Positions 5,121-24,342 of a stretch of 64,000 nt of DNA are shown piece by piece. Source of the stretch: Candidatus Eiseniibacteriota bacterium (GTDB lineage Bacteria > Eisenbacteria > RBG-16-71-46 > CAIMUX01 > VGJL01); the NCBI GenBank assembly GCA_963792585.1, contig CAWBWI010000006.1, forward strand, positions 960,001-1,024,000, given 5' to 3'. A program made the translations under genes and the position numbers. Under the pieces are notes generated by a model, which had not been told where the DNA came from, did no database searches, and saw nothing but the letters and a program-made list of their open reading frames with translations. Numbering within the stretch: the stretch's first letter is position 1; every line of letters starts with the position of its first letter.

Positions 5121-6008
5121 TCAGTCGAGGAGAATCAGCTTCGTACTCCGCACGCCCGCGGGCGATGTCAGGCGGGCCAGGTAGATACCGCTCGACGCGC
5201 CGGCAGCATTCCAGACGACCTCGTGGGAGCCGGCGGGAAGGGTCCCGTCAGCGAGCGTGGCGATGCGGCGTCCCTGAAGATCGAGGATCTCCACGCGCAC
5301 GTTTTCGGACGCGGTCAGGAAGACCGCGAACGTCGCGCGTCCCACGCACGGGTTCGGACCCACGGCCGAGATGCGCGCCGGCGCATCGTCCACGGATGCG
5401 GGCGGGATCTGGGGACAGTCGTTGTGCCCGGGCTGAAACCACCGAATCACGCCGAAGTTCTCGCAGAGGTCCTCGTTCGGCGGGTCTGCGTCGTCAAAGA
5501 ACTTCGCCTGGTTCGTGCTCGGGTAGCTTCGCGTTGCGAAGTAGTTCTCCGGTCCGTCGACGAACGTAGCAAACCAATAGAGGCGGATGAGGCGTTCATG
5601 GACCGGGGAGCCAAACGTGACGATGTTCCCGAATCCGGTCTCGGGCCAGCCGGGATCTGGAGACTCGGTTGGCGAGGGCCCGCAGACTCTCCAATTGGTG
5701 AAGTACCCTTGATCAGCGGGGATATTGTGGTCGATCCCGAATTGAACCGTGGTCACGGCGGGCGAAGCATCCGGCAGAAACGCCGCCATGACCCAGATGA
5801 TCTGTTCCTCGTCGATCCCTCGTCCAGCGGCGGCATTCAGCTCCTCACACGTAGCGGGAAGGGTCGGAGTACTGCACCAGTACGCGCCGTCTCTGTACTG
5901 CACCGTGTCGTCGGTGTGCACCACGAGAGCACCGTTGGCATTGCGCCCGGCGACTGCGGGCGGGGCAAGAAGCATCAGAAGCACGATCGAGGAAATCAAC
6001 ATTCTCAT
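5121..6008 (-). CDS. Secreted protein with FlgD-Ig/T9SS-A-like C-terminal domain
   Basis: Signal peptide; C-terminal PNP...ILDLQGRRIATL...WN...SGIYLARL...KLILLD. Confidence 0.8.
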   Translation of the reverse strand: MRMLISSIVLLMLLAPPAVAGRNANGALVVHTDDTVQYRDGAYWCSTPTLPATCEELNAAAGRGIDEEQIIWVMAAFLPDASPAVTTVQFGIDHNIPADQGYFTNWRVCGPSPTESPDPGWPETGFGNIVTFGSPVHERLIRLYWFATFVDGPENYFATRSYPSTNQAKFFDDADPPNEDLCENFGVIRWFQPGHNDCPQIPPASVDDAPARISAVGPNPCVGRATFAVFLTASENVRVEILDLQGRRIATLADGTLPAGSHEVVWNAAGASSGIYLARLTSPAGVRSTKLILLD

Positions 6009-6090
6009 AGCGACCTCCTGAGCCCAGTGGGTTCCCTTTGCAGCGCGTCTATTGTATCACCCCCCCCCCAAGTCGAGGTCAAGGAGGATA

Positions 6091-7483
6091 AAAGGAAGAC
6101 CCGGGGAGCCAATGTCCTCTAGGACAGGTCCCCCGGGCCATAAGCCGGCCCCCGCTGCGGAGCAAGGCCGGCAGGTGTCGGTTCGACTTACTTCAGTAGA
6201 ACCATCTTCTCCGTGCGGACGCCGTCGGCCGTCGTCAGCCGTGCGAAGTAGACGCCGCTCTCAACCGGCTTGCCGCCGTCCGAGATGCCGTTCCAGGTCT
6301 GAACGTGCACGCCCGGAGTCATCCGGCCGCTCACGAGTTGCGTGACCTTGCGTCCGCCCAGGTCGAATACCTCCAGGCTGACCGGACCGTTCGCGCCGAC
6401 CGGCGACAGCGTGAAGCTGATCTCCGTCTTCGGGTTGAACGGGTTCGGACGCACCGCGTCGATCCGGGTGGTGAACAAGACGTTCCCGTCGGGCGCATCG
6501 GCCGGAGGCGCCGGATGCAGCCAGTTCAGGATGCGGCCGAGCAAGAACTTCTGGTTGTTCGGATCCGCGTCGGTCGCGCTGACCGCATGGAAGCAGGCCG
6601 GCATGAAGACGACCTTCGCGTCGTTGTACACGTTGTGGATCAGAGCGTTCGAATTCTCGTTGCCGAGCAGACCCGTCACCGCCGTGTTCGGAACCGCGTT
6701 GTCCCCCTTGTTGAACGAGGGGAACTGGAAGGACAACGGCAGGTTGAACCCATCGCCGATCGGATCGCCCACGACTCCGAGGAGGCTCGTGTAGCCCGTG
6801 TTGAGCGTCCAGGACGCGATCCCAAGATAGTTTTGCGTGAAGTCGCTTGGCGAGGTGCTATCCAGGAACGACTGACTCGTGAAGTAGAGACTTCCCCCCC
6901 CGTCCACGAACTGCATCATCAACGCTTGGTCACCGGCGTCCGGGGGAGTGGAGGTCCGGTACCCGGTCTCCCAGATCATGATGTCGAAGCCCTGGACGTT
7001 CGCGTACGAAGGTGCCGTACCATTGTGGACGTTGTTGATGTCCCACTGCTCGTAGAGGTAGCCGAGCTGGTTCAACGCCGTCGTCCAGATCCCGCTGCCT
7101 CCACCGGTGGAGCTGCTGTCGTTGATCAGATAAACGGCGTAGCTGCCGTTGAACACCCGCATCGACTTCGTCTGGACCCTACCCGAGGTGTTCGATGTGA
7201 CGTTGAAGCCGCCCGTCCGGACCGCGACCGTCCCGTTCGTGTGAACGCGAACGGTGAAATCACAGGTCCCGTTCGGGGGCAGTGTCACCTGGGTGGGCGC
7301 CGTGTGCGGATTCGGGTCGCCGCAGACCAGGAAGTCCGTCGTCCAGTCCCCGAACGCCGCGCCCGGCTCGAGCGTGAAGATCTGGTTCGAGGCCGTCAGG
7401 TTCCAGAGCTGCCCGGTGAAGGTGGCTGTGCCGTTCCCCTCCGGGACCGACTTGACCTTCACTGGATAGTAGAGCGAGAAGTC
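6091..7483. repeat. ~1.4 kb near-identical duplication, copy 1 (copy 2 at ~8432-9832)
   Basis: 3' two-thirds of paralogs 1 and 2 plus their 3' UTRs match almost base for base. Confidence 0.9.
6092..6138 (-). terminator. Intrinsic terminator after selenoprotein paralog 1
   Basis: CCCGGGGGAC-CUGUCC-UAGA-GGACA-UUG-GCUCCCCGGG followed by UCUUCCUUUU. Confidence 0.7.
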
Positions 7484-8230
7484 CGGAGCCTGGCCCGCGC
7501 CGATCTTCTGCGCCTGAATGACTTCCTTGGTCGCCGTCGATTGGAGGTAAGCGATTCCGACCAGGTTCGCCGGCACCCATGAGCCGATCGAGACGTTGGT
7601 CGAGATCGTCACCTCGTCGCCGACGTTGGTCAGCGTGACGTTCTGGTCGTAGATCTTGCGGGTGACGCGGTCCCAGTGGTCCACGCCGCCGTAGCCGCAG
7701 CACCAGGTCAGATCGTCTTCGTAGAGCAGCAGAGTGCCGCGCAGGTTGCTGAGCTGCACCGGGTCGACCAGCTTGAAGGTCGCCGACATCGAGGCGACCC
7801 CGGCGTTGATCGTCATGCTGGAATTGATGACGACCGGGCTGGCGCCATCGGTTGCGGCGATCCGCGCGTTGAGCCCGTTCCGGTAGCTGACAGTTTGGTT
7901 TGGGCAGACATCCGCCCCGACGAATTCCGAGATCCCGTCGATCTCGACCGTGGGGAATCCGTCTATGCCGTAGAAATTCTGCCTGGCCGTGGTCTCCGTT
8001 GTCGTGAACGGGTCCGTGCCGGAGCAGTGGTTTTCCCAGTGAACGACCTGGTTGCCGAACTCGGTCTCCATCGCATCGCACGCGCACCGCGCGCGAGGAC
8101 AGTACGTTCACCACGTGGCCCCGAACTCCTCGATGGTCATCACCTTGGGCACGCTCGCCAGAGCGGCGGGCACGACCAGCGCTCCAAGCATCAGGAGGAT
8201 CCCGATGAGAGCGGCAAACTTCCGTTGCAT
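6188..8230 (-). CDS. Secreted selenoprotein paralog 1 (~680 aa): signal peptide, Omp28/thioredoxin-like UxxC domain, Ig-like and alpha/beta domains, FlgD/T9SS-like CTD
   Basis: ATG 8230 with GGAGGT RBS; MQRKFAALIG...EEFGATW-TGA(8110-8108)-TYCPRARCACDAMETEF, in frame with ORF 6188-8071; hairpin downstream of the TGA. Confidence 0.88.
8076..8096 (-). other. Bacterial SECIS-like hairpin (paralog 1)
   Basis: UCGCGCGC-GGUGC-GCGUGCGA at +12..+32 after UGA; loop starts with GG. Confidence 0.75.
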
Positions 8231-8430
8231 GGCACCTCCAAGTGAAGCGAAGCGGCCGACCCAGTAACCGAACCATGTCCATAAGGACATTCCTGGAGCA
8301 AACTGAGATTATTTTACACTAAATGGGTCGATGATCTGACCACAATCTACTGCACTACATCAGGCTACGGTCGGGGTGGTCCCGCGGGAAACGGGATCAT
8401 CCGGTGGGTTTTCGGTGCCGAAACGCGCCC

Positions 8431-8480
8431 AAAAGGAAGGCCCGGGGAGCCCAATGTCCTCTGGGACAGGTCCCCCGGGC
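8431..8480 (-). terminator. Intrinsic terminator after paralog 2
   Basis: Same hairpin as 6092-6138 with a CAGA loop, then CCUUCCUUUU. Confidence 0.7.
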
Positions 8481-9832
8481 CATGAGCCGGCCCCCGCTGC
8501 GGAGCAAGGCCGGCAGGTGTCGGTTCGACTTACTTCAGTAGAACCATCTTCTCCGTGCGGACGCCGTCGGCCGTCGTCAGCCGTGCGAAGTAGACGCCGC
8601 TCTCAACCGGCTTGCCGCCGTCCGAGATGCCGTTCCAGGTCTGGACGTGCACGCCCGGGGTCATCCGGCCGCTCACGAGTTGCGTGACCTTGCGTCCGCC
8701 CAGGTCGAAGACCTCCAGGCTGACCGGACCGTTCGCGCCGACCGGCGACAGCGTGAAGCTGATCTCCGTCTTCGGGTTGAACGGGTTCGGACGCACCGCG
8801 TCGATCCGGGTGGTGAACAAGACGTTCCCGTCGGGCGCATCGGCCGGAGGCGCCGGATGCAGCCAGTTCAGGATGCGGCCGAGCAAGAACTTCTGGTTGT
8901 TCGGATCCGCGTCGGTCGCGCTGACCGCATGGAAGCAGGCCGGCATGAAGACGACCTTCGCGTCGTTGTTCACGTTGTGGATCAGAGCGTTCGAATTCTC
9001 GTTGCCGAGCAGACCCGTCACCGCCGTGTTCGGAACCGCGTTGTCCCCCTTGTTGAACGAGGGGAACTGGAAGGACAACGGCAGGTTGAACCCGTCGCCG
9101 ATCGGATCGCCGCACGACTCCGAGGAGGCTCGTGTAGCCCGTGTCGAGCGTCCACGATGCGATCCCGAGGTAGTTCTGCGTGAAGTTGTTCGGGACGTTG
9201 TTCAGGGAGTTCAGGAACAGCTGGCTCGTGAAGTAGAGGCTTCCCCCCGCGTCCACGAACTGCATCATCAACGCCTGCTCGCTCGCGTCCGGGGGGCTGG
9301 AGGTCCGGTACCCGGTCTCCCAGATCATGATGTCGAAGCCCTGGACGTTCGCGTACGAAGGGGCGGCTCCGCTGTGGACGTTGTTGATGTCCCACTGCTC
9401 GTAGAGGTAGCCGAGCTGGTTCAACGCCGTCGTCCAGATCCCGCTACCTCCACCGGTGGAGCTGCTGTCGTTGATTAGGTAGACAGAGTAGCTGCCGTTG
9501 AACACCCGCATCGACTTCGTCTGGACCCTACCCGAGGTGTTCGATGTCACGTTGAAGCCACCCGTCCGGACCGCGACCGTCCCGTTCGTGTGAACGCGAA
9601 CGGTGAAATCACAGGTCCCGTTCGGGGGAAGGGTCACCTGGGTGGGCGCCGTGTGCGGATTCGGGTCGCCGCAGACCAGGAAGTCCGTCGTCCAGTCCCC
9701 GAACGCCGCGCCCGGCTCGAGGGTAAAGATCTGGTTCGAGGCCGTCAGGTTCCAGAGCTGCCCGGTGAAGGTGGCTGTGCCGTTCCCCTCCGGGACCGAC
9801 CTGACCTTCAGCGGATAGTAGAGCGAGAAGTC
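8432..9832. repeat. ~1.4 kb near-identical duplication, copy 2
   Basis: Matches 6091-7483 apart from scattered substitutions and small indels. Confidence 0.9.
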
Positions 9833-10564
9833 GAGGGCCGGAGCCGAGCCAATCCTCTGCGCCTGGATGATCTCCTTGGAGACGGTTGACTGCAGGTAGA
9901 CGACCCCAACCAGGTTAGCCGGGGACCAAGAACCAATCGGCACGTTTGCAGCGATGGTTGCTTGATCACCCACGTTCGTCAGCGTGATGTTCTGATCATA
10001 GATCTTGCGCGTCACACCGTCCCAGTACTCGCCACCGTTGAGGACGTTGTCCTCGTAGAGCAGCAGCGTTCCGCGAAGGTTGGACACGGAAACAGGGTCG
10101 ACGAGGGTGAAGGTCCCCGACATCGACGCCGTGCCTCCTGCTATGGACATCGACGCATTGCTGATGAGTACAGGGCTCACCCCGTCGATGGCGGCCAGTC
10201 GGCCGTTGATGTCCGTTCTATAGATGCTGGCCATTGCCGAGCATGTGCTCCCGCCAACCTCCTGGATGATTCCGTCGATCCGAACATCCGGAACACCACT
10301 GACGCCATACCAGTTGGTCCTGGCGATCGTCTCCGAGGTGGAAAGCGTTCCCGACGTGTGGAGCTCCCAATGCGCCATTCGCGTGGGACCCATTTCATCT
10401 TGCACCGTCTGCAGCCCGCACCGGGCCGCTGGGCAATAGGGTCAGGTCGTGTACCCAAACTCCTCAGCCATGATGACCCTGGGCACGCTCGCCAGAGCGG
10501 CGGGCACGACCAGCGCCCCAAGCATCAGGAGGATCCCGATGAAAGCAGCAAACTTCCGTTGCAT
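8530..10564 (-). CDS. Secreted selenoprotein paralog 2 (~677 aa, UPYC); one +1 indel at ~9112
   Basis: ATG 10564 with GGAGGT RBS; ...AEEFGYTT-TGA(10444-10442)-PYCPAARCGLQTVQDEM, in frame with ORF 8603-10405; one extra base relative to paralog 1 at ~9112 moves the CTD into ORF 8530-9078. Confidence 0.85.
10411..10429 (-). other. Bacterial SECIS-like hairpin (paralog 2)
   Basis: GCGGCCC-GGUGC-GGGCUGC at +13..+31 after UGA, same register as paralogs 1 and 3. Confidence 0.75.
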
Positions 10565-10654
10565 AGCACCTCCCCTATAACGATCTGACCACCAAGAAGA
10601 TAGAGCCGGTTCCGTCGAGCCGGCCTGGAGACATCACGTACCAATTATAAGGGA

Positions 10655-10670
10655 TATGAAACGTTTCACA
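10655..10670. promoter_or_regulatory. CRP/HcpR-like box next to a TATAAT -10 upstream of paralog 2
   Basis: TATGA-AACGTT-TCACA; minus-strand TATAAT at 10649-10644. Confidence 0.45.
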
Positions 10671-10690
10671 AACTCGGGATAACCAAATCG

Positions 10691-10737
10691 AAAAAATGAC
10701 CCGGGGGCCTCGTCCTCTGGGACGCAGACCCCCGGGC
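10691..10737 (-). terminator. Intrinsic terminator after paralog 3
   Basis: CCCGGGGGUC-UGCGUCC-CAGA-GGACG-AG-GCCCCCGGG then UCAUUUUUU. Confidence 0.75.
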
Positions 10738-10785
10738 TGAACCGACCCCGGCCTTATTGGGCGCAGGATCAGCAAATGCCTCCGA

Positions 10786-12839
10786 TTACTTCAGCAGGAC
10801 GAGCTTGGTCCCCTGCTTCCCCTCGACCGTCGTCAGGCGGGCGAAGTAGACACCGCTCTCGACCGGCTTGCCGGCATCGGAGAGTCCGGCCCAGGCGACC
10901 GTATGGTCCCCCGGGGTCGTCCTTCCCTCGTACACACCGGCCACCCGGCGACCGGCCATGTCGTAGATCTCGAGGCGGACCGGTCCATCCGCTCCGCGGG
11001 GAGAGACCTGGTAGAAGATCTCGGTGCGCGGGTTGAACGGATTCGGTCGGACCGACGAGATCCTCGAGGCGAGGATCGAACCCGGGAGGTCATCGACGTC
11101 CGCGGGAGGCGCCGGCTGCAACCAGGTCAGGATCCGTCCGAGGACGGTCTTCTGGTTGTTCGGATCCGGGTCGGTCGGGCTGATCGCATTGAAGACCGCA
11201 GGCATGAAGACTGCCTTGGATCCCCGCCCAACCACGTTGTGAAGAACCGCGTTGGATCCCTCGTCCCCGAGCAGCGAGGTGACCGCCGTCGCCGGATTCG
11301 CGTTGTCCCCCTTGTTGAACGAAGGGAACTGGAACGAGAGCGGCAAGGTGAGGCCGTCGCCGATCGGGTCCCCCGCGACGCCGTTGAGGGTCGTGTACCC
11401 CGTGTCGAGCGTCCAGGTGCCGATTCCGAGGTAGTTCTGGGTGAACGCGTTTGGCGTCCCGACGGAGTTCAGGAAGTACTGGCTGGTGAGGAACAGGCTC
11501 CCGCCGGCATCCATGAACTGCATCATCAACGCCTGCTCGGGGTCTCCCGGCAGAGCGTTCGACCGGTAGGCCGTCTCCCAGATCATGATGTCGAAGCCCG
11601 AGACATCGAGCCAGCCCGGCGGGGTGCCGCTGTGCTGGTAGGCGATATCCCAGCGGTCGTACAGGTAACCGAGCTGATCGAGCGCGGTCGTCCAGATCGC
11701 GGAGTGCTCGGTGTTCTGGTTGTTGTTCACGAGGAAGACCGCGTAGCTGCCGTTGAACACACGCAGGTTGGACGTCTTCACGTCTCCCGAGTTGCTCGAT
11801 GACGCTTCGAACGCTCCCGTCCGGATCTGCTTGGTCCCATCCGTGTGGACGCGGACCGTGAAGTCGCAGGACTCGCCGGCGGGGACGCTGATCTCAACCG
11901 GCGCGGTGTGCGGGTTCGGATCGCCGCAGACGAGAATCTCGCTCGTCCAGGTCCCGAGACCCGTGGGCGGCGTGAGCGTGAGCACGTCGGCGTTGAGGCC
12001 GGTGTTCGTGATCTGTCCCGTGAAGACCGCCGTTCCATTGCCGGCCGGGACGGAGTCCACGAAGTTGGCGAAGGTCATGCGGAAGTCGTAGGGACGGGGC
12101 ATCCGGTAGCCCTGGATGATCGGGGTGGTCCCGGTCGTCTGCTGGAGGTAGGCGATCCCCGTCAGATTGTCCACGTTCCAGTTCGGGTTCCGCGGGACCG
12201 TGGTGGACACCGTGACCTGGTCACCGACGTTGGTCAGCGTGATGTTCTGGTCGTACATGTCGCGGGTCACGCGATCCCAGTGGCTCACGTTCCCGTATCC
12301 GCAGCACCAGGTGATGTCGTCCTCGTAGAAGAGAAGCGTCGCGCGGAGGTTGGTCAGGGTGACCGGGTCGACCTTGCGGAAAGTCGCAGAGTAGATGATG
12401 TCGGTCGCCGTGGTCTGGAAGCTTCCCGTGATCTCCACAGGACTTACGTTGTTCGTCTCGTTGAATCGCGCGTTCAGCGCGTTGCGGTACAAGACCGTCG
12501 TCGTGGGGCAAACATCCGCGCCGATGAACTCGCGGCTGCCGTCGATCTCGATCGTGGGGTAACCGGACGTACGCCGTACCAGTTCGCACGAGCCGTCGTC
12601 TCGGTCGTGGTGAAGGGATCGTTGCTGGAGACATGATGGCTCTCCCAGTGAATGACCCGATCACCGAACTCGATTTCCATTGCTTCGGACGCGCACCGCG
12701 CCCGAGGGCAGTACGTTCACCACGTCGCCCCGAATTCTTCGATGATTGCGACCTTCGGCACGCTCGCCATGACTGCGGGCGCGAACACCGCCCCGAGCAG
12801 GAGCAAGATCCCCCCGAGGGCTGCGAACTTTCTGAGCAT
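10786..12839 (-). CDS. Secreted selenoprotein paralog 3 (~683 aa, UTYC); one frameshift at ~12570
   Basis: ATG 12839 with GGAGGT RBS; MLRKFAALGG...EEFGATW-TGA(12719-12717)-TYCPRARCASEAMEIEF...NWYG/SGYPTIEIDG, continuing into ORF 10786-12492. Confidence 0.85.
12685..12705 (-). other. Bacterial SECIS-like hairpin (paralog 3)
   Basis: UCGGGCGC-GGUGC-GCGUCCGA at +12..+32 after UGA. Confidence 0.75.
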
Positions 12840-12988
12840 GACACCTCCCCAAGCTGCATCCGACTGTGGTCACACATACGCGGAAGCCGATCCAGAGGAC
12901 CCGATCCAGAGGATCCGCTCCAGATGACGCCCTTGAATTCTACCATATCGAATGCCTGGAATTGAAGGATGTAGAAGCACTTATATCG

Positions 12989-13004
12989 TGTGAAACTCAT
13001 CACA
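12989..13004. promoter_or_regulatory. CRP/HcpR-type box
   Basis: Perfect TGTGA-AACTCA-TCACA; minus-strand extended -10 TGgTAGAAT at ~12945-12937. Confidence 0.55.
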
Positions 13005-13190
13005 TATGTGGTTTTCGCTCATCCTCCGTCCGCTGAATGTCCCGGGGTCGCAGTCCTCGGACGGCACGTCGCGACCGGGACTCTGCGTCGCGGTCCATCC
13101 CGCAGTGCGCCGCCGGCTCCACAATCCATAGGGTGCTGCCCGGGACCTTGGCTAACCACTTGAAATCGCGCGGGATCGAGGGCCCCCTTC

Positions 13191-15257
13191 TTGAGGACGG
13201 CCGAAGGCCCTGCTAGTCTGGGCGCCTGGACGAAGGAGCACGATGAACTCGCCGATGATCTCGGATTCCGCGCCGCCCGCAAACCGGCCCTCCGGTTGGC
13301 CATCGCCATCCTGGTTCTCTCCTCGGTGCTGCCCTATCTGAATGCTCTCCGTTGCGGCTTCGCATTCGACGACCAGCTCCTCGTGGCGCGCCACAAGGTC
13401 GTGACCGGTGCTTTCGCGCCCCTTTCCATTCTGGCGGCTCCATACTGGGAGGCGATCCGAGAAGCGCTCTTGTGGCGGCCGGTGACCACCTTCTCCTTCG
13501 CGATCGATTGGCATCTCGGAGGAGGAGGCGCCGCATGGTTCCACGCGGTCAATATTGGATTGCACGCGATCGTGACGCTGCTGTGGGCCTGGCTCGTATT
13601 GCGGATCACGAGTCGTCGCGCTCTGGCGCTGGTCGCAGGAGCGCTCTTCGCGGTCCACCCGATCCACACCGAAGCGGTGACCTGGATTTCGGGGCGGGCG
13701 GAGCTGCTCGCTGCGGCGTTCGGACTCGCGGCCGTGCACCTCGCCTGGTCGCGTTGGCGATGGCTCACCCTGCCGGCCGTGCTGCTCGCCGTTGGATCGA
13801 AGGAGAGCGCGGCGGCCTTGCCGTTGATCCTGCTCTATCTGAGTTGGGCCTTGCGCGGGAGGCGCGCCGATGCCCCGTCATGGCGCCTCGGCGTTGCCGC
13901 GTTCGCGCCGGTCGTGCTGTTCGTCGTCCTGCGTCGCGTCGTGCTCGGGACATGGGGCGGCCCGAGCCCCGATCCGATGGACAATCCGATGAGCGGGCTC
14001 GGACTCCTCGCGCGGTTGCCGACCGTCCTGGATGCGGCGGGGCGTTATCTGGTTCTGCTCATCTGGCCCGCGCGGCTGTCGATCGACTACTCCGCGCCGG
14101 TTCTGGGGGTCGTGCGCGGCCTGACGCCGCTCCTTCTCATGGGGCTCGTCGCGTCGGTCGGTCTCGTCTTGCTGGCCATCCGGCGTCGCCGCGAGCCGGA
14201 AGGGTGGGGCGCCGGGTTCGCGCTCCTGAGTTTCGCGCTCGCGTCCAACCTGCCGGTGGTGATCGGCACCATCTTCGCCGAGCGCCTCCTCTACCTTCCC
14301 TCGGCGGGGTTGCTCCTCATCGCCGTGTGTGGAGGTTTCGCCCTCACCCGTCAGCGGGTGCCCGCGCGGGCGCTCCAGGCGATCCTCGCAATCCTCATCC
14401 TTGCCGGCGTCGCCCGTACATGGACCCGTAACCGCGATTATCTCGACGAGGCGACGATGTATGCGGCCGGAGTGCGTGTCACCCCGAATAGCCCCAAGAT
14501 GCGCTTCAACCATGCGCTCGCGCTCAACCGCCAGGGCCGGCATGAGGATGCCGTCCGCGAGGGAATCGAGGCCATCCGCCTGAACCCATCGAGCCGCGAA
14601 GCACGTGATGTCATCGCCTGCTCGCTCGATTCGCTCGGCAGAGGAGAGGAGGCGATCCGCTTCCTCCGTCGCGTTCTGATCGAAGATCCGGGAGACCGCG
14701 TTTCGCGAAGGAAGCTGATCACCCTGCTCGAGAAGCGCGGCCTGCTCGACGCGGTCGATTCCATCGCCACCGCGGGGGTGCGAGGCGATCCGGACGAGCC
14801 CGAATGGGTGGGGCGGGCCGCGAAGGCCGCGCAGGATCGGAGGGACTACGCGCGCGCGGCCGAACTCTGGCGCGAGGCCTTGCGCCGCTCGCCGGACACG
14901 GTCGACGTTCCGCTCTACCTCGCATTCTGCCTCTACAAGCTCGGGGACATCATCGGCGCACGGGACGCATACCGCGAGGCGTTGCGTCGCTCCCCCGAAT
15001 CGGCGGACGCCGCGAACGGGCTCGCCTGGGCCCTGCTCGAAACCGGCGGCCCGGTGGACGAGGCAATCCGCCTCGGGGAACTGGCGACCGCGAAAGCGCC
15101 GCAGGGCGCGAACGGATTCGACACTCTGGCCCGCGCCTACGAAGCGGCGAGACGATGCGCCGACGCGATCCGCGCCCAGGAGCGGGCGATCGAACTCGAT
15201 CCGGCCAATGCGTCGTACCGTCAGAGACTCGCCGCGATCCGGCAACGCTGCCGGTAG
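13191..15257 (+). CDS. TMTC-like GT-C protein glycosyltransferase (DUF1736-type membrane domain + TPR repeats)
   Basis: FAFDD, WRPVT, FHAVNIGLH, FAVHPIHTEAVTWISGRAELL, SKE, WPARLSIDY, FAERLLYLPS, then TPRs; start uncertain because the best RBS+ATG at 13243 is out of frame. Confidence 0.85.
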   Translation: MRTAEGPASLGAWTKEHDELADDLGFRAARKPALRLAIAILVLSSVLPYLNALRCGFAFDDQLLVARHKVVTGAFAPLSILAAPYWEAIREALLWRPVTTFSFAIDWHLGGGGAAWFHAVNIGLHAIVTLLWAWLVLRITSRRALALVAGALFAVHPIHTEAVTWISGRAELLAAAFGLAAVHLAWSRWRWLTLPAVLLAVGSKESAAALPLILLYLSWALRGRRADAPSWRLGVAAFAPVVLFVVLRRVVLGTWGGPSPDPMDNPMSGLGLLARLPTVLDAAGRYLVLLIWPARLSIDYSAPVLGVVRGLTPLLLMGLVASVGLVLLAIRRRREPEGWGAGFALLSFALASNLPVVIGTIFAERLLYLPSAGLLLIAVCGGFALTRQRVPARALQAILAILILAGVARTWTRNRDYLDEATMYAAGVRVTPNSPKMRFNHALALNRQGRHEDAVREGIEAIRLNPSSREARDVIACSLDSLGRGEEAIRFLRRVLIEDPGDRVSRRKLITLLEKRGLLDAVDSIATAGVRGDPDEPEWVGRAAKAAQDRRDYARAAELWREALRRSPDTVDVPLYLAFCLYKLGDIIGARDAYREALRRSPESADAANGLAWALLETGGPVDEAIRLGELATAKAPQGANGFDTLARAYEAARRCADAIRAQERAIELDPANASYRQRLAAIRQRCR

Positions 15258-19977: not shown

Positions 19978-22900
19978 CTAGGCCGGTCTTCCGAGCGCTT
20001 TCTCCTTCGCCTTGTGTTGCCGCTCCGCGTGGGTCATCCGGTTTCGAATACCGTTGCCGATATCGTCGAAGAACGTGTAGACGACCGGCACGCACGACGA
20101 GGGTCAGCAGCTGCTCGTGATCAGGCCGCCGATCACGGCGCGCGCCATCGGCGCGCGGAACTCGGCGCCGGCGCCGAGCGCCAGGGCGAGCGGCAGCATG
20201 CCGAAGATCATCGCCAGGGTGGTCATGACGATCGGCCGCAGGCGGATCTCGCCCGGCGTCGATCAGCGCGCTCGCGCCGGTCCAGGCCCCGCGCTCGCCC
20301 CTGGTTCGCGAAGTCGACGAGCAGGATCGCGTTCTTCGTCACGAGCCCCATCAGCAGGATCAGGCCGATCATGCTCATGAGGTTGAACGTGGTGCCGGTC
20401 GCCAGGAGCATCGATGAGCACGCCGACCATCGACAGCGGCACCGAGAGCATGATCGCCAGCGGCTGCAGGAACGAGCCGAACTGGCTGGCGAGCACCAGG
20501 TAGATGAAGATCGATCGCCAGCATGAGGCTCTCGAGGATGTAGCCGACCGTCTCGCGGAAGTCCTCGCGTCTCGCCGCCGAGGTCGACGCTGTAGCCGGT
20601 CGGCATCGCGAGCTTCGACGCGACGCCTTCTCGATGTCCGCCGGTCACCTCGGTCAGCGTCCGCCCGTCGAAGTTGGCCTCGACCGAGCACGACCCGCTT
20701 CATGTCGCGCCGGTCGATCTTCTGCGGGCTCGCGCTGCGGCTCGATCGATGGCGACGTGCCCCAGCCGCACGATCCGCGGGGCGCCCGGTCGCGGGATCG
20801 CAGGCCGCCGCCGCGAGCGGCAGCGCTGCGAGCTGCTCGACCGACTCGCCGCGCCTCTCGCGGCAGCCGCACGATCACGTCGTGCTGCTCGCCGCTCGGG
20901 ATCCTCCCAGGTCGAGGCCTTCTGGCCCGCGAGCGCCGGCCGCAGCGTCGCGGCGAGCGCGCCGACGCCGACGCCCATCTCGCTCGCCAGATCGCGGCGC
21001 AGGTCGATGCGCACCTCGGGCCGCTCTTCCTCGAGCCCCGACTCCGCCTCGATCGCTCCGGGCGTCCTGCGCACGACCTCGAGCACCTCGTTCGAGATCC
21101 GGCGCAGCTCGTCGATCTGGTCGCCCTTCACGTAGATCTGCGAGCGGCTTCTGCGCGCCGCCGAAACCGCCGGCGTCGAGCACCGAGATCGGCGACCCCG
21201 GGCAGGCTCCCGATCTCGCGCGCGAAGGACACGGCTCCACCTCCTGCTGGGAGCAGGTCGCGCTCGCCCTTGGGCACGAGCTTCACGTAGATCTCCGCCT
21301 CGTTGACCTGCGCGCTGAAGCCGCCGGCGATCGTCTCGTAGGTGTAGTCGACCTCGGGATGGCGGCGCAGCAGCGGCCGAGACCTCGCGCACGCGGTCGC
21401 GCGTGTAGTCGAGCGAGGAGCCCACCGGCGTCTTCACCAGCACGGCGAGCTCCTCGTCGTCGGCGACCGGGCATGAAGCGTGCCGCCGACCAGCGGGAAG
21501 AGCGCGAGCGCCGCGATGAAGGACGCGACCGCGATGCCCAGCGTCGGCCATGCGGTGGCCGAGCGCCCAGCCGATCACGCGCGCGGTAGCGCTTGCCCAG
21601 GCCGACGAAGCCGTCGTTGAACCGCTCGAGCGCGCGCCCAGCGGCCCGCGCGGCCGACGTGGCCCTCGGCGACCGGGTCGTACCAGACCGACGAGAGCAT
21701 CGGGTCGAGGGTGAAGGAGACGAAGAGGCTCACCGCGACCGCGCACGGCCACCGTGACGCCGAACTCGCGGAAGAACTGGCCGACGATGCCGCCCATGAA
21801 GGCGACCGGGACGAACACGCAGAGCGTCGACAGCGGTGGTCGCGAGCACGGCGAGGCCGATCTCGCTGGTGCCCTTGCGGGCCGCCGTGTTGTGGTCCTC
21901 GCCCATCGCCGACGTGGCGGACGATGTTCTCGCGCACGACGATCGCGTCGTCGATCAGGATGCCCGATCGCGAGCGAGAGCGCCATCAGGGTCATCGTGT
22001 TGAGCGTGTAGCCGAAGGCGTAGATCGCCAGGAACGACGGCGATGACCGACACCGGCAGCGTGAGCCCGGTGATCACGGTCGAGCGCCACGAGTTCAGGA
22101 AGGTGAAGACGACGAGCACGGTGAGGAGCGCGCCGATGAGGATCGTCGTCTTCGACGTCCTCGACCGAGTCGCGGATCCACACCGAGTTGTCGCGCACGA
22201 TCGAGAGCTCGACGCCTCCGGGCAGTCGGCCGCGGAGCTCGTCGACCTTCGTCTTCACGCTGGTCGGCGACCTCGACGGTGTTCGCGCCTGAGACCTTGC
22301 GGATGTCGATGCCGATGGCGGGGGTGCCGTTGACGAGCGCCGCCGAGCGCGCCTCCTCGGCGTCGTCGATCGATCGGGCCGACGTCGCCGAGGCGGATCG
22401 GCACGCCCGCCGCGGACGTCGACGACCAGGTCGGTCGAAGTCGGCCGGCTCCCGGAGGCGTCCGGCCACGCGCACGAGCTGCTCGCCGGGACCCAGCTCG
22501 AGCCGTCCCGGCCGGGAATCTCCATGTTCTCCGCGCCGAGCGTCGCCATGACCTGGCCGACCGTGACCGCGCGCGCCGCGAGCCGCTCGGGGTCCAGCTC
22601 CACCACGATCGCGCGCTTCTCGCCGCCGATGATCGTCACCTGGCCGACGCCGTCGACGCCCTCGAGCTCCTTGCGGATCGTCTCGTCGGCGATGGTCGTC
22701 AGCTCGCGCAGCGTGCGCGTGTCCGAGCGCAGCGCGAGGGAGACGATCGGGATGTCCTGCGGGTCGAAGCGCAGCACCAGCGGCTTCTCGATGTCGTCGG
22801 GCAGCTCGTCGCGGATCTGGTCGATCTTCGCGCGCACGTCCTGCTGCGCGTCCATCTGGTCGATCTTCAGCTCGAACTCGATGAAGATCGAGGAGAAGCC

Positions 22901-23161
22901 CCTCGAGCGAAGAGCGAGGTCAGGTTCCGCACCCCGGCGATCGGGTTGACCGCCTCCTCGATCTTGCGGGTGACGTCGCGCTCGACCGTCTCCGGCGAGG
23001 CGCCCGGGATAGACGGTCTGCACCACGATGAAGGGGAAGCTGATGTCCGGCCACTGGTCGATCGACAGGCGGCGGTAGGAGAAGAGGCCCAGCGTGACGA
23101 GCGCCACCATCATCATGGTCGCGAAGACCGGCCGCTTGATCGAGACGTCGGAGAGGAACAT
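19978..23161 (-). CDS. RND efflux permease (AcrB/CzcA family), many frameshifts in this sequence
   Basis: [73 protein letters not shown] fragments; TAG at 19980-19978. Confidence 0.88.
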
Positions 23162-23182
23162 CGCGCTGCTTTCCCGCCTTCC

Positions 23183-24342
23183 CTATTGTCCGTCGTGCCG
23201 GCGTGGCGCCGGTCGCCTGGCTTCCCTTGAGGATCAGGACCTTCGCACCGTCCTTCAGGCCGGGCAGAACTCCGGTCAGCAGCGAGTCGCCCGCGGCGAC
23301 GTCGCCGATGCAGCTCGCCGACGCCTGCATCCGTCGTCGATCGAGCCCGGTCCGGATCGGAAGCCGCTGAGCCCGTCCTGCCGCGTAGCCGATAGACCAC
23401 CTCGTCCTGTCCTTCCTTGCGGATCGTCCGATGGGTGCCGCAAGGGCCTGCTCGCGCGACCTGGTCCACGACGCGCCCGCTGGCGAAGAGCCCGCCGACC
23501 AGGCGTCCGTCCGGGTTCGGGAGGCGCATGTAGATCCGAACCTGGCGGGTGCCGGGTTCGGTCGTGGGATTGACGCGATCGACCTTCCCCTCGAAGACCT
23601 CGTCGGGATAGGCGTCGACGCGGAAGCGGATCGTCGCGCCCGGCCGCACGCGGGCGAGCGCCTCCGACGGGACCGTCGCCGACAGCTCGAGCGTCCGAGT
23701 TGTCGACGATGGTGAAGAGGCGGTCGCCGACAGCCGTGCGGTCGCCGCCGTGCACGAACACCTTGCTCACCCAGCCGGTGATCGGGCTCGGCACATCGAG
23801 TCGCTCGGCGTCCTCCTTCGCGCGGTTTCGCATCGCGACCGCATTGTCGACGGCCGCCTGCGCTGCGGAGCGCTGCGCCTCGGCCGCCTCGAGATCGCTC
23901 GAGGAGGCGGCGCCCGCGTCGAAGAGCCGCTTCACGCGCGCGCACCGTTCTCCGCCGCCGACAGCCCCGCTTGCGCGGCGAGCATGCCGGCCTCCGCGGC
24001 GGTGAGCCTGTCGTTGACGTCACGCGGTCGGTATATCGCCAGGGCTTGCCCGCGCTGGATCGCCTGGCCCTCCCGCACCATGCACGGCGTCGAGATCGCC
24101 GTCGAAGCGCGACGTGATCTCCACGGTCTGCACCGGCGCGAGATCTCCGGTGAACGCCACGCCGGATTCGATCCGGCGCGTCTGGATCCGGACCACGTCT
24201 TCCGCGTTCACCTGGACGACACTCTCCTCGACCGTCCTCGAGTTTGCGTTCTTGCGCGTGCACCCCGCAGGGGCCAGGAGCACCAGCGCGCCCAGAATCG
24301 CCATGGCCCACTCACGAATTCTGGTTCCATCGGCTTCCTCAT
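23183..24342 (-). CDS. RND periplasmic adaptor (membrane fusion protein), frameshifted
   Basis: Lipobox-like LAPAGC, VAFTGDLAP, SPITGWVSK, VDAYPDEVFEGKVDRVNP; both ends approximate. Confidence 0.8.

Follow-up and report, generated by a model that had tools for sequence, protein, structure and literature searches.

The selenocysteine insertion sequence (SECIS) of E. coli fdhF is a hairpin just 3' of the UGA codon which carries G-G-U at its apex and a bulge within its fold, whereby SelB requires the bulged U. A more general bacterial consensus, underlying the bSECISearch model, is given in PMC13188914, in which the apical loop comprises 3-9 nucleotides (nt) and the upper stem 4-16 base pairs (bp), a G is expected within the first two loop positions in the motif N1-G-[G/U]-N-N2 with N1 and N2 being paired, the loop lies 16-37 nt after UGA and the minimum free energy (MFE) is below -7.5 kcal/mol. 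Among proteins, the closest described systems are HBP35 of Porphyromonas gingivalis, for which PMC2907840 reports thioredoxin activity and attachment to the cell surface, and the Omp28-related selenoprotein family NF045500, which appears as GOS_C with a UxxC motif in Table 1 of PMC13188914. In the present work a stretch of 64,000 nt from Candidatus Eiseniibacteriota bacterium (assembly GCA_963792585.1, contig CAWBWI010000006.1, positions 960,001 to 1,024,000; hereafter the window) was analysed, in which three tandem minus-strand genes, P1, P2 and P3, each possess an in-frame UGA within a UxxC motif, followed by a hairpin. It is very probable, on the sequence evidence described below, that these hairpins are canonical bacterial SECIS elements and that UGA encodes selenocysteine (Sec) in all three genes. 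The principal features are given in window coordinates, with hairpin positions being counted on the minus strand from the base right after UGA:

6188..8230, minus strand: P1 gene, intact, 680 amino acids, Omp28/HBP35-like
8108..8110, minus strand: in-frame UGA of P1 (predicted Sec41), all 72 aligned homologs having U or C in this column
8076..8096, minus strand: predicted SECIS hairpin of P1 (+12..+32), with the closing pair G20-C24, a GUG loop and the key base G+21 at 8087
8530..10564, minus strand: P2 gene, with a frame break near 9113 in the assembly
10442..10444, minus strand: in-frame UGA of P2, read in the sequence
10411..10429, minus strand: predicted SECIS hairpin of P2 (+13..+31), from sequence, recoding and folding
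10786..12839, minus strand: P3 gene, with a frame break near 12567-12569 in the assembly
12717..12719, minus strand: in-frame UGA of P3, read in the sequence
12685..12705, minus strand: predicted SECIS hairpin of P3 (+12..+32), from sequence, recoding and folding

Within P1 and P3, positions +12..+19 pair with +32..+25, while P2 pairs +13..+19 with +31..+25 and leaves +12/+32 as an unpaired A.A. Pair +13/+31 is C-G in P1 and P3 and G-C in P2, pair +14/+30 is G-C in P1 and P3 and C-G in P2, pair +15/+29 is C-G in P1, G-C in P3 and G-U in P2, and pair +18/+26 is G-C in P1 and P3 and C-G in P2; GGUGC occupies +20..+24 in all three paralogs. A preliminary description of this DNA had reported these pairs in one register after UGA together with the invariant GGUGC, and each base and pair it quoted is present in the sequence. 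Folding yielded ensemble pair probabilities of 0.98-1.0 at +13..+19 and of 0.86-0.87 for G20-C24, and as G20 pairs with C24 the apex is a GUG triloop with G+21 as its key base. The MFE of +12..+32 amounts to -14.4 to -15.4 kcal/mol for a stem of 8-9 bp. When the peptide was fixed and codons were drawn according to their frequency in the genome, the complete set of 8 pairs together with G+21 was obtained in 3.3% (P1), 0.9% (P2) and 0.6% (P3) of 20,000 recodings and an equal or lower MFE in 5.0%, 0.9% and 0.2% of 3,000 recodings respectively, frequencies which are not to be multiplied, the paralogs being kin. An Rfam search of 5900-13300 gave no match at E <= 1.

Comparison with homologs supports the earlier reading of UGA as Sec, of the hairpins as SECIS elements and of the changes at +18/+26 as evidence for structure. 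At least 150 matches were obtained in a first search, with 30 loci and 100 regions taken in, and 165 profile rows were reduced to 147 sites by merging duplicates and dropping one C-terminal frame, one sequence that was too short and one without the motif; at the U/C column, 113 of these sites carry TGA and 34 carry TGC or TGT. The core motif, defined as pairs +17..+20, G+21 and G or U at +22, occurs at 77 of the 113 UGA-type sites and at none of the 34 Cys-type sites, for which recoding expects 4.1 and 0.3. The preliminary description had named equally good retention of the hairpin in Cys-codon homologs as a refutation, and with the core motif at 0 of 34 such sites this refutation did not come about. 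A phylogenetic tree built without the U/C site and codons +1..+15 contains a main clade (95 Sec-type and 7 Cys-type members) within which Sec and Cys were exchanged 6 times, and among its 95 Sec genes the inner pairs starting at +16, +17, +18, +19 and +20 are formed in 80, 80, 92, 89 and 91. Position +26 changes eight times on this tree and +18 changes on the same branch in 8 of 8 cases, the top rank among 79 column pairs, whereby +18 falls on the third codon base of Ala47, which is silent, and a change at +26 exchanges Gly and Ala at residue 50. The resulting tally (n=94) comprises 65 C-G, 25 G-C, 1 U-G and 3 unpaired combinations, and the covariation score of 0.210 compares with 0.094 for shuffled columns and 0.037-0.139 for slid partners.

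Within the main clade, the silent Arg position G+21 is present in 91 of 95 Sec members but in 1 of 7 Cys members. For Arg at codon +7, 89 of 94 Sec genes use CGG or AGG and none uses CGC, the commonest Arg codon of the genome (usage 40%, versus 30% for CGG), while CGC is found in 3 of the 4 Cys genes with Arg at this codon; likewise, where codon +9 encodes Gly, GGG is used in 78 of 81 cases (genome usage 28%). The preliminary description had allowed that the constant loop may partly follow from conserved Arg-Cys codons, which holds for the Cys codon, as it is kept by the protein, but not for Arg, whose silent CGG is kept by the RNA. In SelD of the same genome, a stem in the register of P1-P3 comes after an in-frame TGA, and among relatives 13 of 13 TGA-type SelD copies pair +14..+19 with the loop GGGAC in 10 and AGGAU in 3, whereas the stem occurs in 0 of 3 Cys-type copies, these counts covering 16 of 31 loci, namely those found by the motif. 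As GGGAC and AGGAU covary at +20/+24, these positions are taken as a pair and G+21 as the constant base. Considering all this, the predicted functional SECIS core is made up of the five inner pairs plus one G, to which the hairpin data narrow it. In many relatives the Sec-type SelD is accompanied by another SelD that lacks TGA and lies within a longer open frame (L142-L159).

The genome (5.4 Mb, 84% complete) encodes SelA, SelB, SelD and tRNA-Sec, all above cut-off, and SelB shows the GTPase, beta-barrel and winged-helix domains in Pfam. As is typical of bacterial SECIS elements, UGA stands at the Cys column of homologs, SelA, SelB, SelC and SelD accompany it in the genome and the element is degraded in Cys-codon homologs. 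GGUGC at +20 recurs in two additional Sec paralogs on the contig, where 6 and 4 of 7 stem pairs are formed; after the Cys codon of a Cys paralog and of a distant Cys relative no such hairpin was found. In the mechanism suggested from established knowledge, SelB in complex with GTP and Sec-tRNA would bind the apical G+21 within an N1-G-U-G-N2 loop, N1-N2 being G20-C24, on top of a G+C-rich stem that is conserved in its inner five pairs, +16..+20 with +28..+24. Sec would then be delivered to UGA 20 nt upstream, yielding the U-x-x-C redox motif of a presumably exported Omp28/HBP35-like thioredoxin-fold protein with probable oxidoreductase activity. As the SECIS element lies in coding sequence, RNA and protein would constrain each other: Arg48 may be encoded by CGG to supply G+21, Cys49, probably bonded to Cys109, would supply UGC, and the silent third base of Ala47 would flip together with Gly/Ala50, by which pair +18/+26 is kept.

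Several observations weigh against this interpretation, and some of them suit the alternative that the hairpin simply follows from the conserved peptide, Ala-Arg-Cys-Gly/Ala, at a genomic G+C content of 65%, under which UGA might still be Sec while the stem would not be its signal. Cys49 is held by the protein, and 9.9% of synonymous recodings give P1 its full stem. Of the close Cys forms, three retain the stem with loss of the silent G+21 alone, and G+21 persists in one other. In addition, RNAalifold yielded no consensus structure for the 95 sequences of the main clade, one being obtained on 6 sequences of this genome. Furthermore, the outer pairs +13, +14 and +15 are formed in 41, 44 and 39 of 95 Sec genes (about 45%), by which the compensations at +13/+31, +14/+30 and +15/+29, seen among P1-P3 and offered earlier as evidence, are not demanded across the family. 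At 36 of 113 UGA sites the core motif is absent at this register, most of them folding another or a broken hairpin; the main clade has a support of 0.889 in FastTree but an ultrafast bootstrap (UFBoot) value of 43 in a 45-sequence tree; shuffle and Fisher values are overstated since related sequences are not independent; and P2 and P3 are frameshifted in this assembly. A by-product of the peptide is nevertheless very improbable, as the silent positions +18, +21, +24 and +27 are either invariant or change together such that pairing is favoured, the observed 77 core motifs far exceed expectation and SelD, encoding another peptide, shows the same geometry. A similarly slim probability is assigned to UGA being decoded as Cys under SECIS control by a SelC*-type tRNA, or being a stop codon or a sequencing error. 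SECIS-dependent Cys insertion does exist according to PMC13582414, and the assembly has indel errors, but 113 sites spread over the order share UGA, the genome encodes SelA and SelD, and a single tRNA-Sec-like gene scores above the Rfam cut-off with no second one among the 150 of 970 candidates scored in the 84% complete genome. A 92-nt 'tRNA-Cys' reported by ARAGORN was considered as SelC*-type tRNA and discarded, as it is not among the matches of the tRNA-Sec model.

The preliminary description had further proposed a lineage-specific SECIS model. The corresponding alternative would be a class with a 7-8 bp stem from +13 and GGUGC at +20 which a specialised SelB might read. For such a class it could be argued that in this genome the loop G lies at +21 not only in five paralogs but also in SelD and in an AhpD-like candidate, and that the bulged U of the E. 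coli fdhF fold is missing. Compared with fdhF, P1-P3 also place the apex one base further from UGA (G-U at +21/+22 versus +20/+21), form a triloop instead of a shorter loop and possess an unbroken stem. Yet all four constraints of the consensus published in PMC13188914 hold for P1-P3, with G20-[G21 U22 G23]-C24 placing the loop at +20/+21, no defining difference being found and the P1-P3 family being strict only for the inner five pairs. SelB has the usual Pfam domains and the motif is not enriched after TGA. In other candidates of the genome the loop G ranges from +18 to +27, and in one subfamily of the protein family it lies at +26; together with the agreement with the consensus this is why the P1-P3 hairpins are, judged from their sequences, ordinary bacterial SECIS elements; a lineage-specific class is regarded as unlikely. 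The SECIS element is accordingly of a known kind while the protein subfamily is apparently new. The RNA element being textbook, the value of the canonical SECIS reading lies in the evidence that these genes, whose products would be truncated at UGA in annotation pipelines, encode selenoproteins.

Concerning the protein, P1 consists of a signal peptide (assigned by eye), a U41-x-x-C44 thioredoxin fold with an Ig-like domain, middle domains and a tail of the type IX secretion system (T9SS) type A / FlgD-Ig kind, which matches TIGR04183 with 37 bits versus a cut-off of 23. The model of the thioredoxin and Ig-like unit reached a predicted local distance difference test (pLDDT) value of 97, and its best PDB match was HBP35 (PDB 5y1a; E 1e-10, template modelling (TM) score 0.78). 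HBP35 shares this two-domain fold and a C-terminal sorting domain but is of the Cys type, whereas P1 is of the Sec type, with 17% identity between them. The features of an Omp28/HBP35-like thioredoxin-fold oxidoreductase are all found, namely [U/C]xxC at the helix start, the invariant Pro and the thioredoxin plus Ig-like fold, and U/C41, C44 and P93 (alignment C/U13, C16 and P65) are invariant in 72 of 72 homologs. Among the same 72 homologs C49 and C109 are both present in 53, both absent in 18 and discordant in 1, which suggests a structural C49-C109 disulfide, and this putative bond would explain UGC in the hairpin loop. NF045500 is the best NCBIfam match of P1 (54 bits, E 1e-14) and shares with it an Omp28-type unit of thioredoxin and Ig-like domains which has UxxC at its beginning; membership was rejected, as neither P1 nor any of 31 relatives (best 102) reaches the cut-off of 200. 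Model positions past about 270 are unmatched, and P1 adds the Cys pair, the middle domains and the T9SS-type tail. The genome holds 8 PorV-family matches above cut-off, whereas only SprA-like pieces below cut-off were found. More than 150 of its regions match the C-terminal T9SS/FlgD-Ig tail.

The N-terminal unit was found in 34 of 34 genomes of the same order and in 6 of 26 other genomes of the class, while a profile search gave 27 of 27 same-order genomes and 7 of 123 others; five Sec copies occur in this genome and at least 6 in two relatives. A literature search without most subscription papers found no paper joining Omp28 with SECIS or Eisenbacteria with selenocysteine, and passages from PMC12013277 make no mention of Omp or GOS_C. 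The family is apparently an undescribed, order-wide expansion related to Omp28/HBP35, whereby selenoprotein lists in paper supplements could include members. Present in 34 of 34 same-order genomes, mostly UGA-type and apparently exported, it represents a sizeable unannotated block of the bacterial selenoproteome.

Twelve Sec genes of the family (L118-L132, e.g., L121:1193 and L123:1261) form a different stem, +18..+23/+31..+36, which places the loop G at +26 and shows a compensation of its own, pair +21/+33 being C-G in 6 and U-A in 6. As these genes nest inside Cys-type genes (UFBoot 96-100), a probable regain of Sec with a new SECIS element is suggested, by parsimony only. Loss of the loop G in Cys forms was already reported for Group 4 hydrogenases in PMC13582414. 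There is about an even chance that a wider scenario holds, in which one Ca. Eisenbacteria-like order has expanded an undescribed T9SS-exported HBP35-like selenoprotein family whose SECIS element steers protein evolution by eight coupled silent and Gly/Ala flips, and in which Sec disappeared about six times, the loop G decaying as well, and came back once in a Cys lineage through a newly built SECIS element located five bases further downstream. If true, it would provide a natural series for how SECIS elements arise and which spacing SelB tolerates. The family itself forms a natural data set on how Sec is lost and probably regained and on the shift of a SECIS element to another register. GGUGC is missing from two other small Sec groups, which carry different hairpins with a G early in the loop (L046:684, L047:1007, L048:15283, L114, L120, L124, L131, L135), and the Sec paralog of one relative has an in-frame TAG two codons past UGA (L130:673).

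A genome-wide scan for further UGA-plus-hairpin sites, as proposed in the preliminary description, recovered P1-P3 and SelD, but its strict fixed-register motif, found after 7 of 121,493 TGA triplets, four of which are these genes, occurs at background rate, with counts of 3, 2, 10, 7, 5, 3 and 7 at offsets -3..+3. Sixteen other read-through candidates were scanned against families, of which 8 had no such match and 8 fell into redox or selenoprotein families, U standing where it is expected; 5 further candidates were folded only, outside the family scan. The matching eight, with the loop G as placed by single-sequence folds, are:

C3:1081711: TlpA-like, loop G at +18
C1:1644338: PrxQ, loop G at +18
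C1:1373758: UshA-like, loop G at +19/20
C1:1449638: AhpD-like, loop G at +21
C3:350819: HesB-like, loop G at +27
C1:242644: TUGYCR redoxin, loop G at +18
C4:299833: rhodanese, loop G at +23
C6:270789: SelL-like, loop G at +27

A short membrane peptide ending GVPT-UGA, without match in the family scan, carries a strong hairpin (loop G at +25) and runs in frame into an ArsR regulator (C6:570851; 227-763 of the locus).

With regard to the frame breaks, P2 has one and P3 two extra bases as compared to contigs of one related strain assembled from four public runs, whose best matches share 0.22-0.38 of sampled words and hence indicate related strains; contigs from RNA libraries span intergenic DNA too and give no expression readout. 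An EF-Tu-like gene is split in three pieces in the same assembly (C3:1187450-1188582). Given this gene and the related-strain contigs lacking the extra bases, assembly errors are the likelier explanation for the P2 and P3 breaks than inactivation in this strain. An efflux operon at window positions 20200-24300 is split across frames like the EF-Tu-like gene, which suggests assembly indel errors. Three additional features around the genes are consensus matches only, their counts not exceeding those in shuffled sequence:

8438..8454, minus strand: terminator-like hairpin 3' of P2
6098-6110: terminator-like hairpin 3' of P1, similar to that of P2
10644..10671, minus strand: sigma-70-like promoter match upstream of P2

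Finally, the 3' two-thirds of P1 and P2 (6188-7400 and 8530-9750) are 95-100% identical in most 150-column blocks, with the N-terminal units being 60-67% identical, and these near-identical 3' parts point to recent gene conversion or a domain swap.

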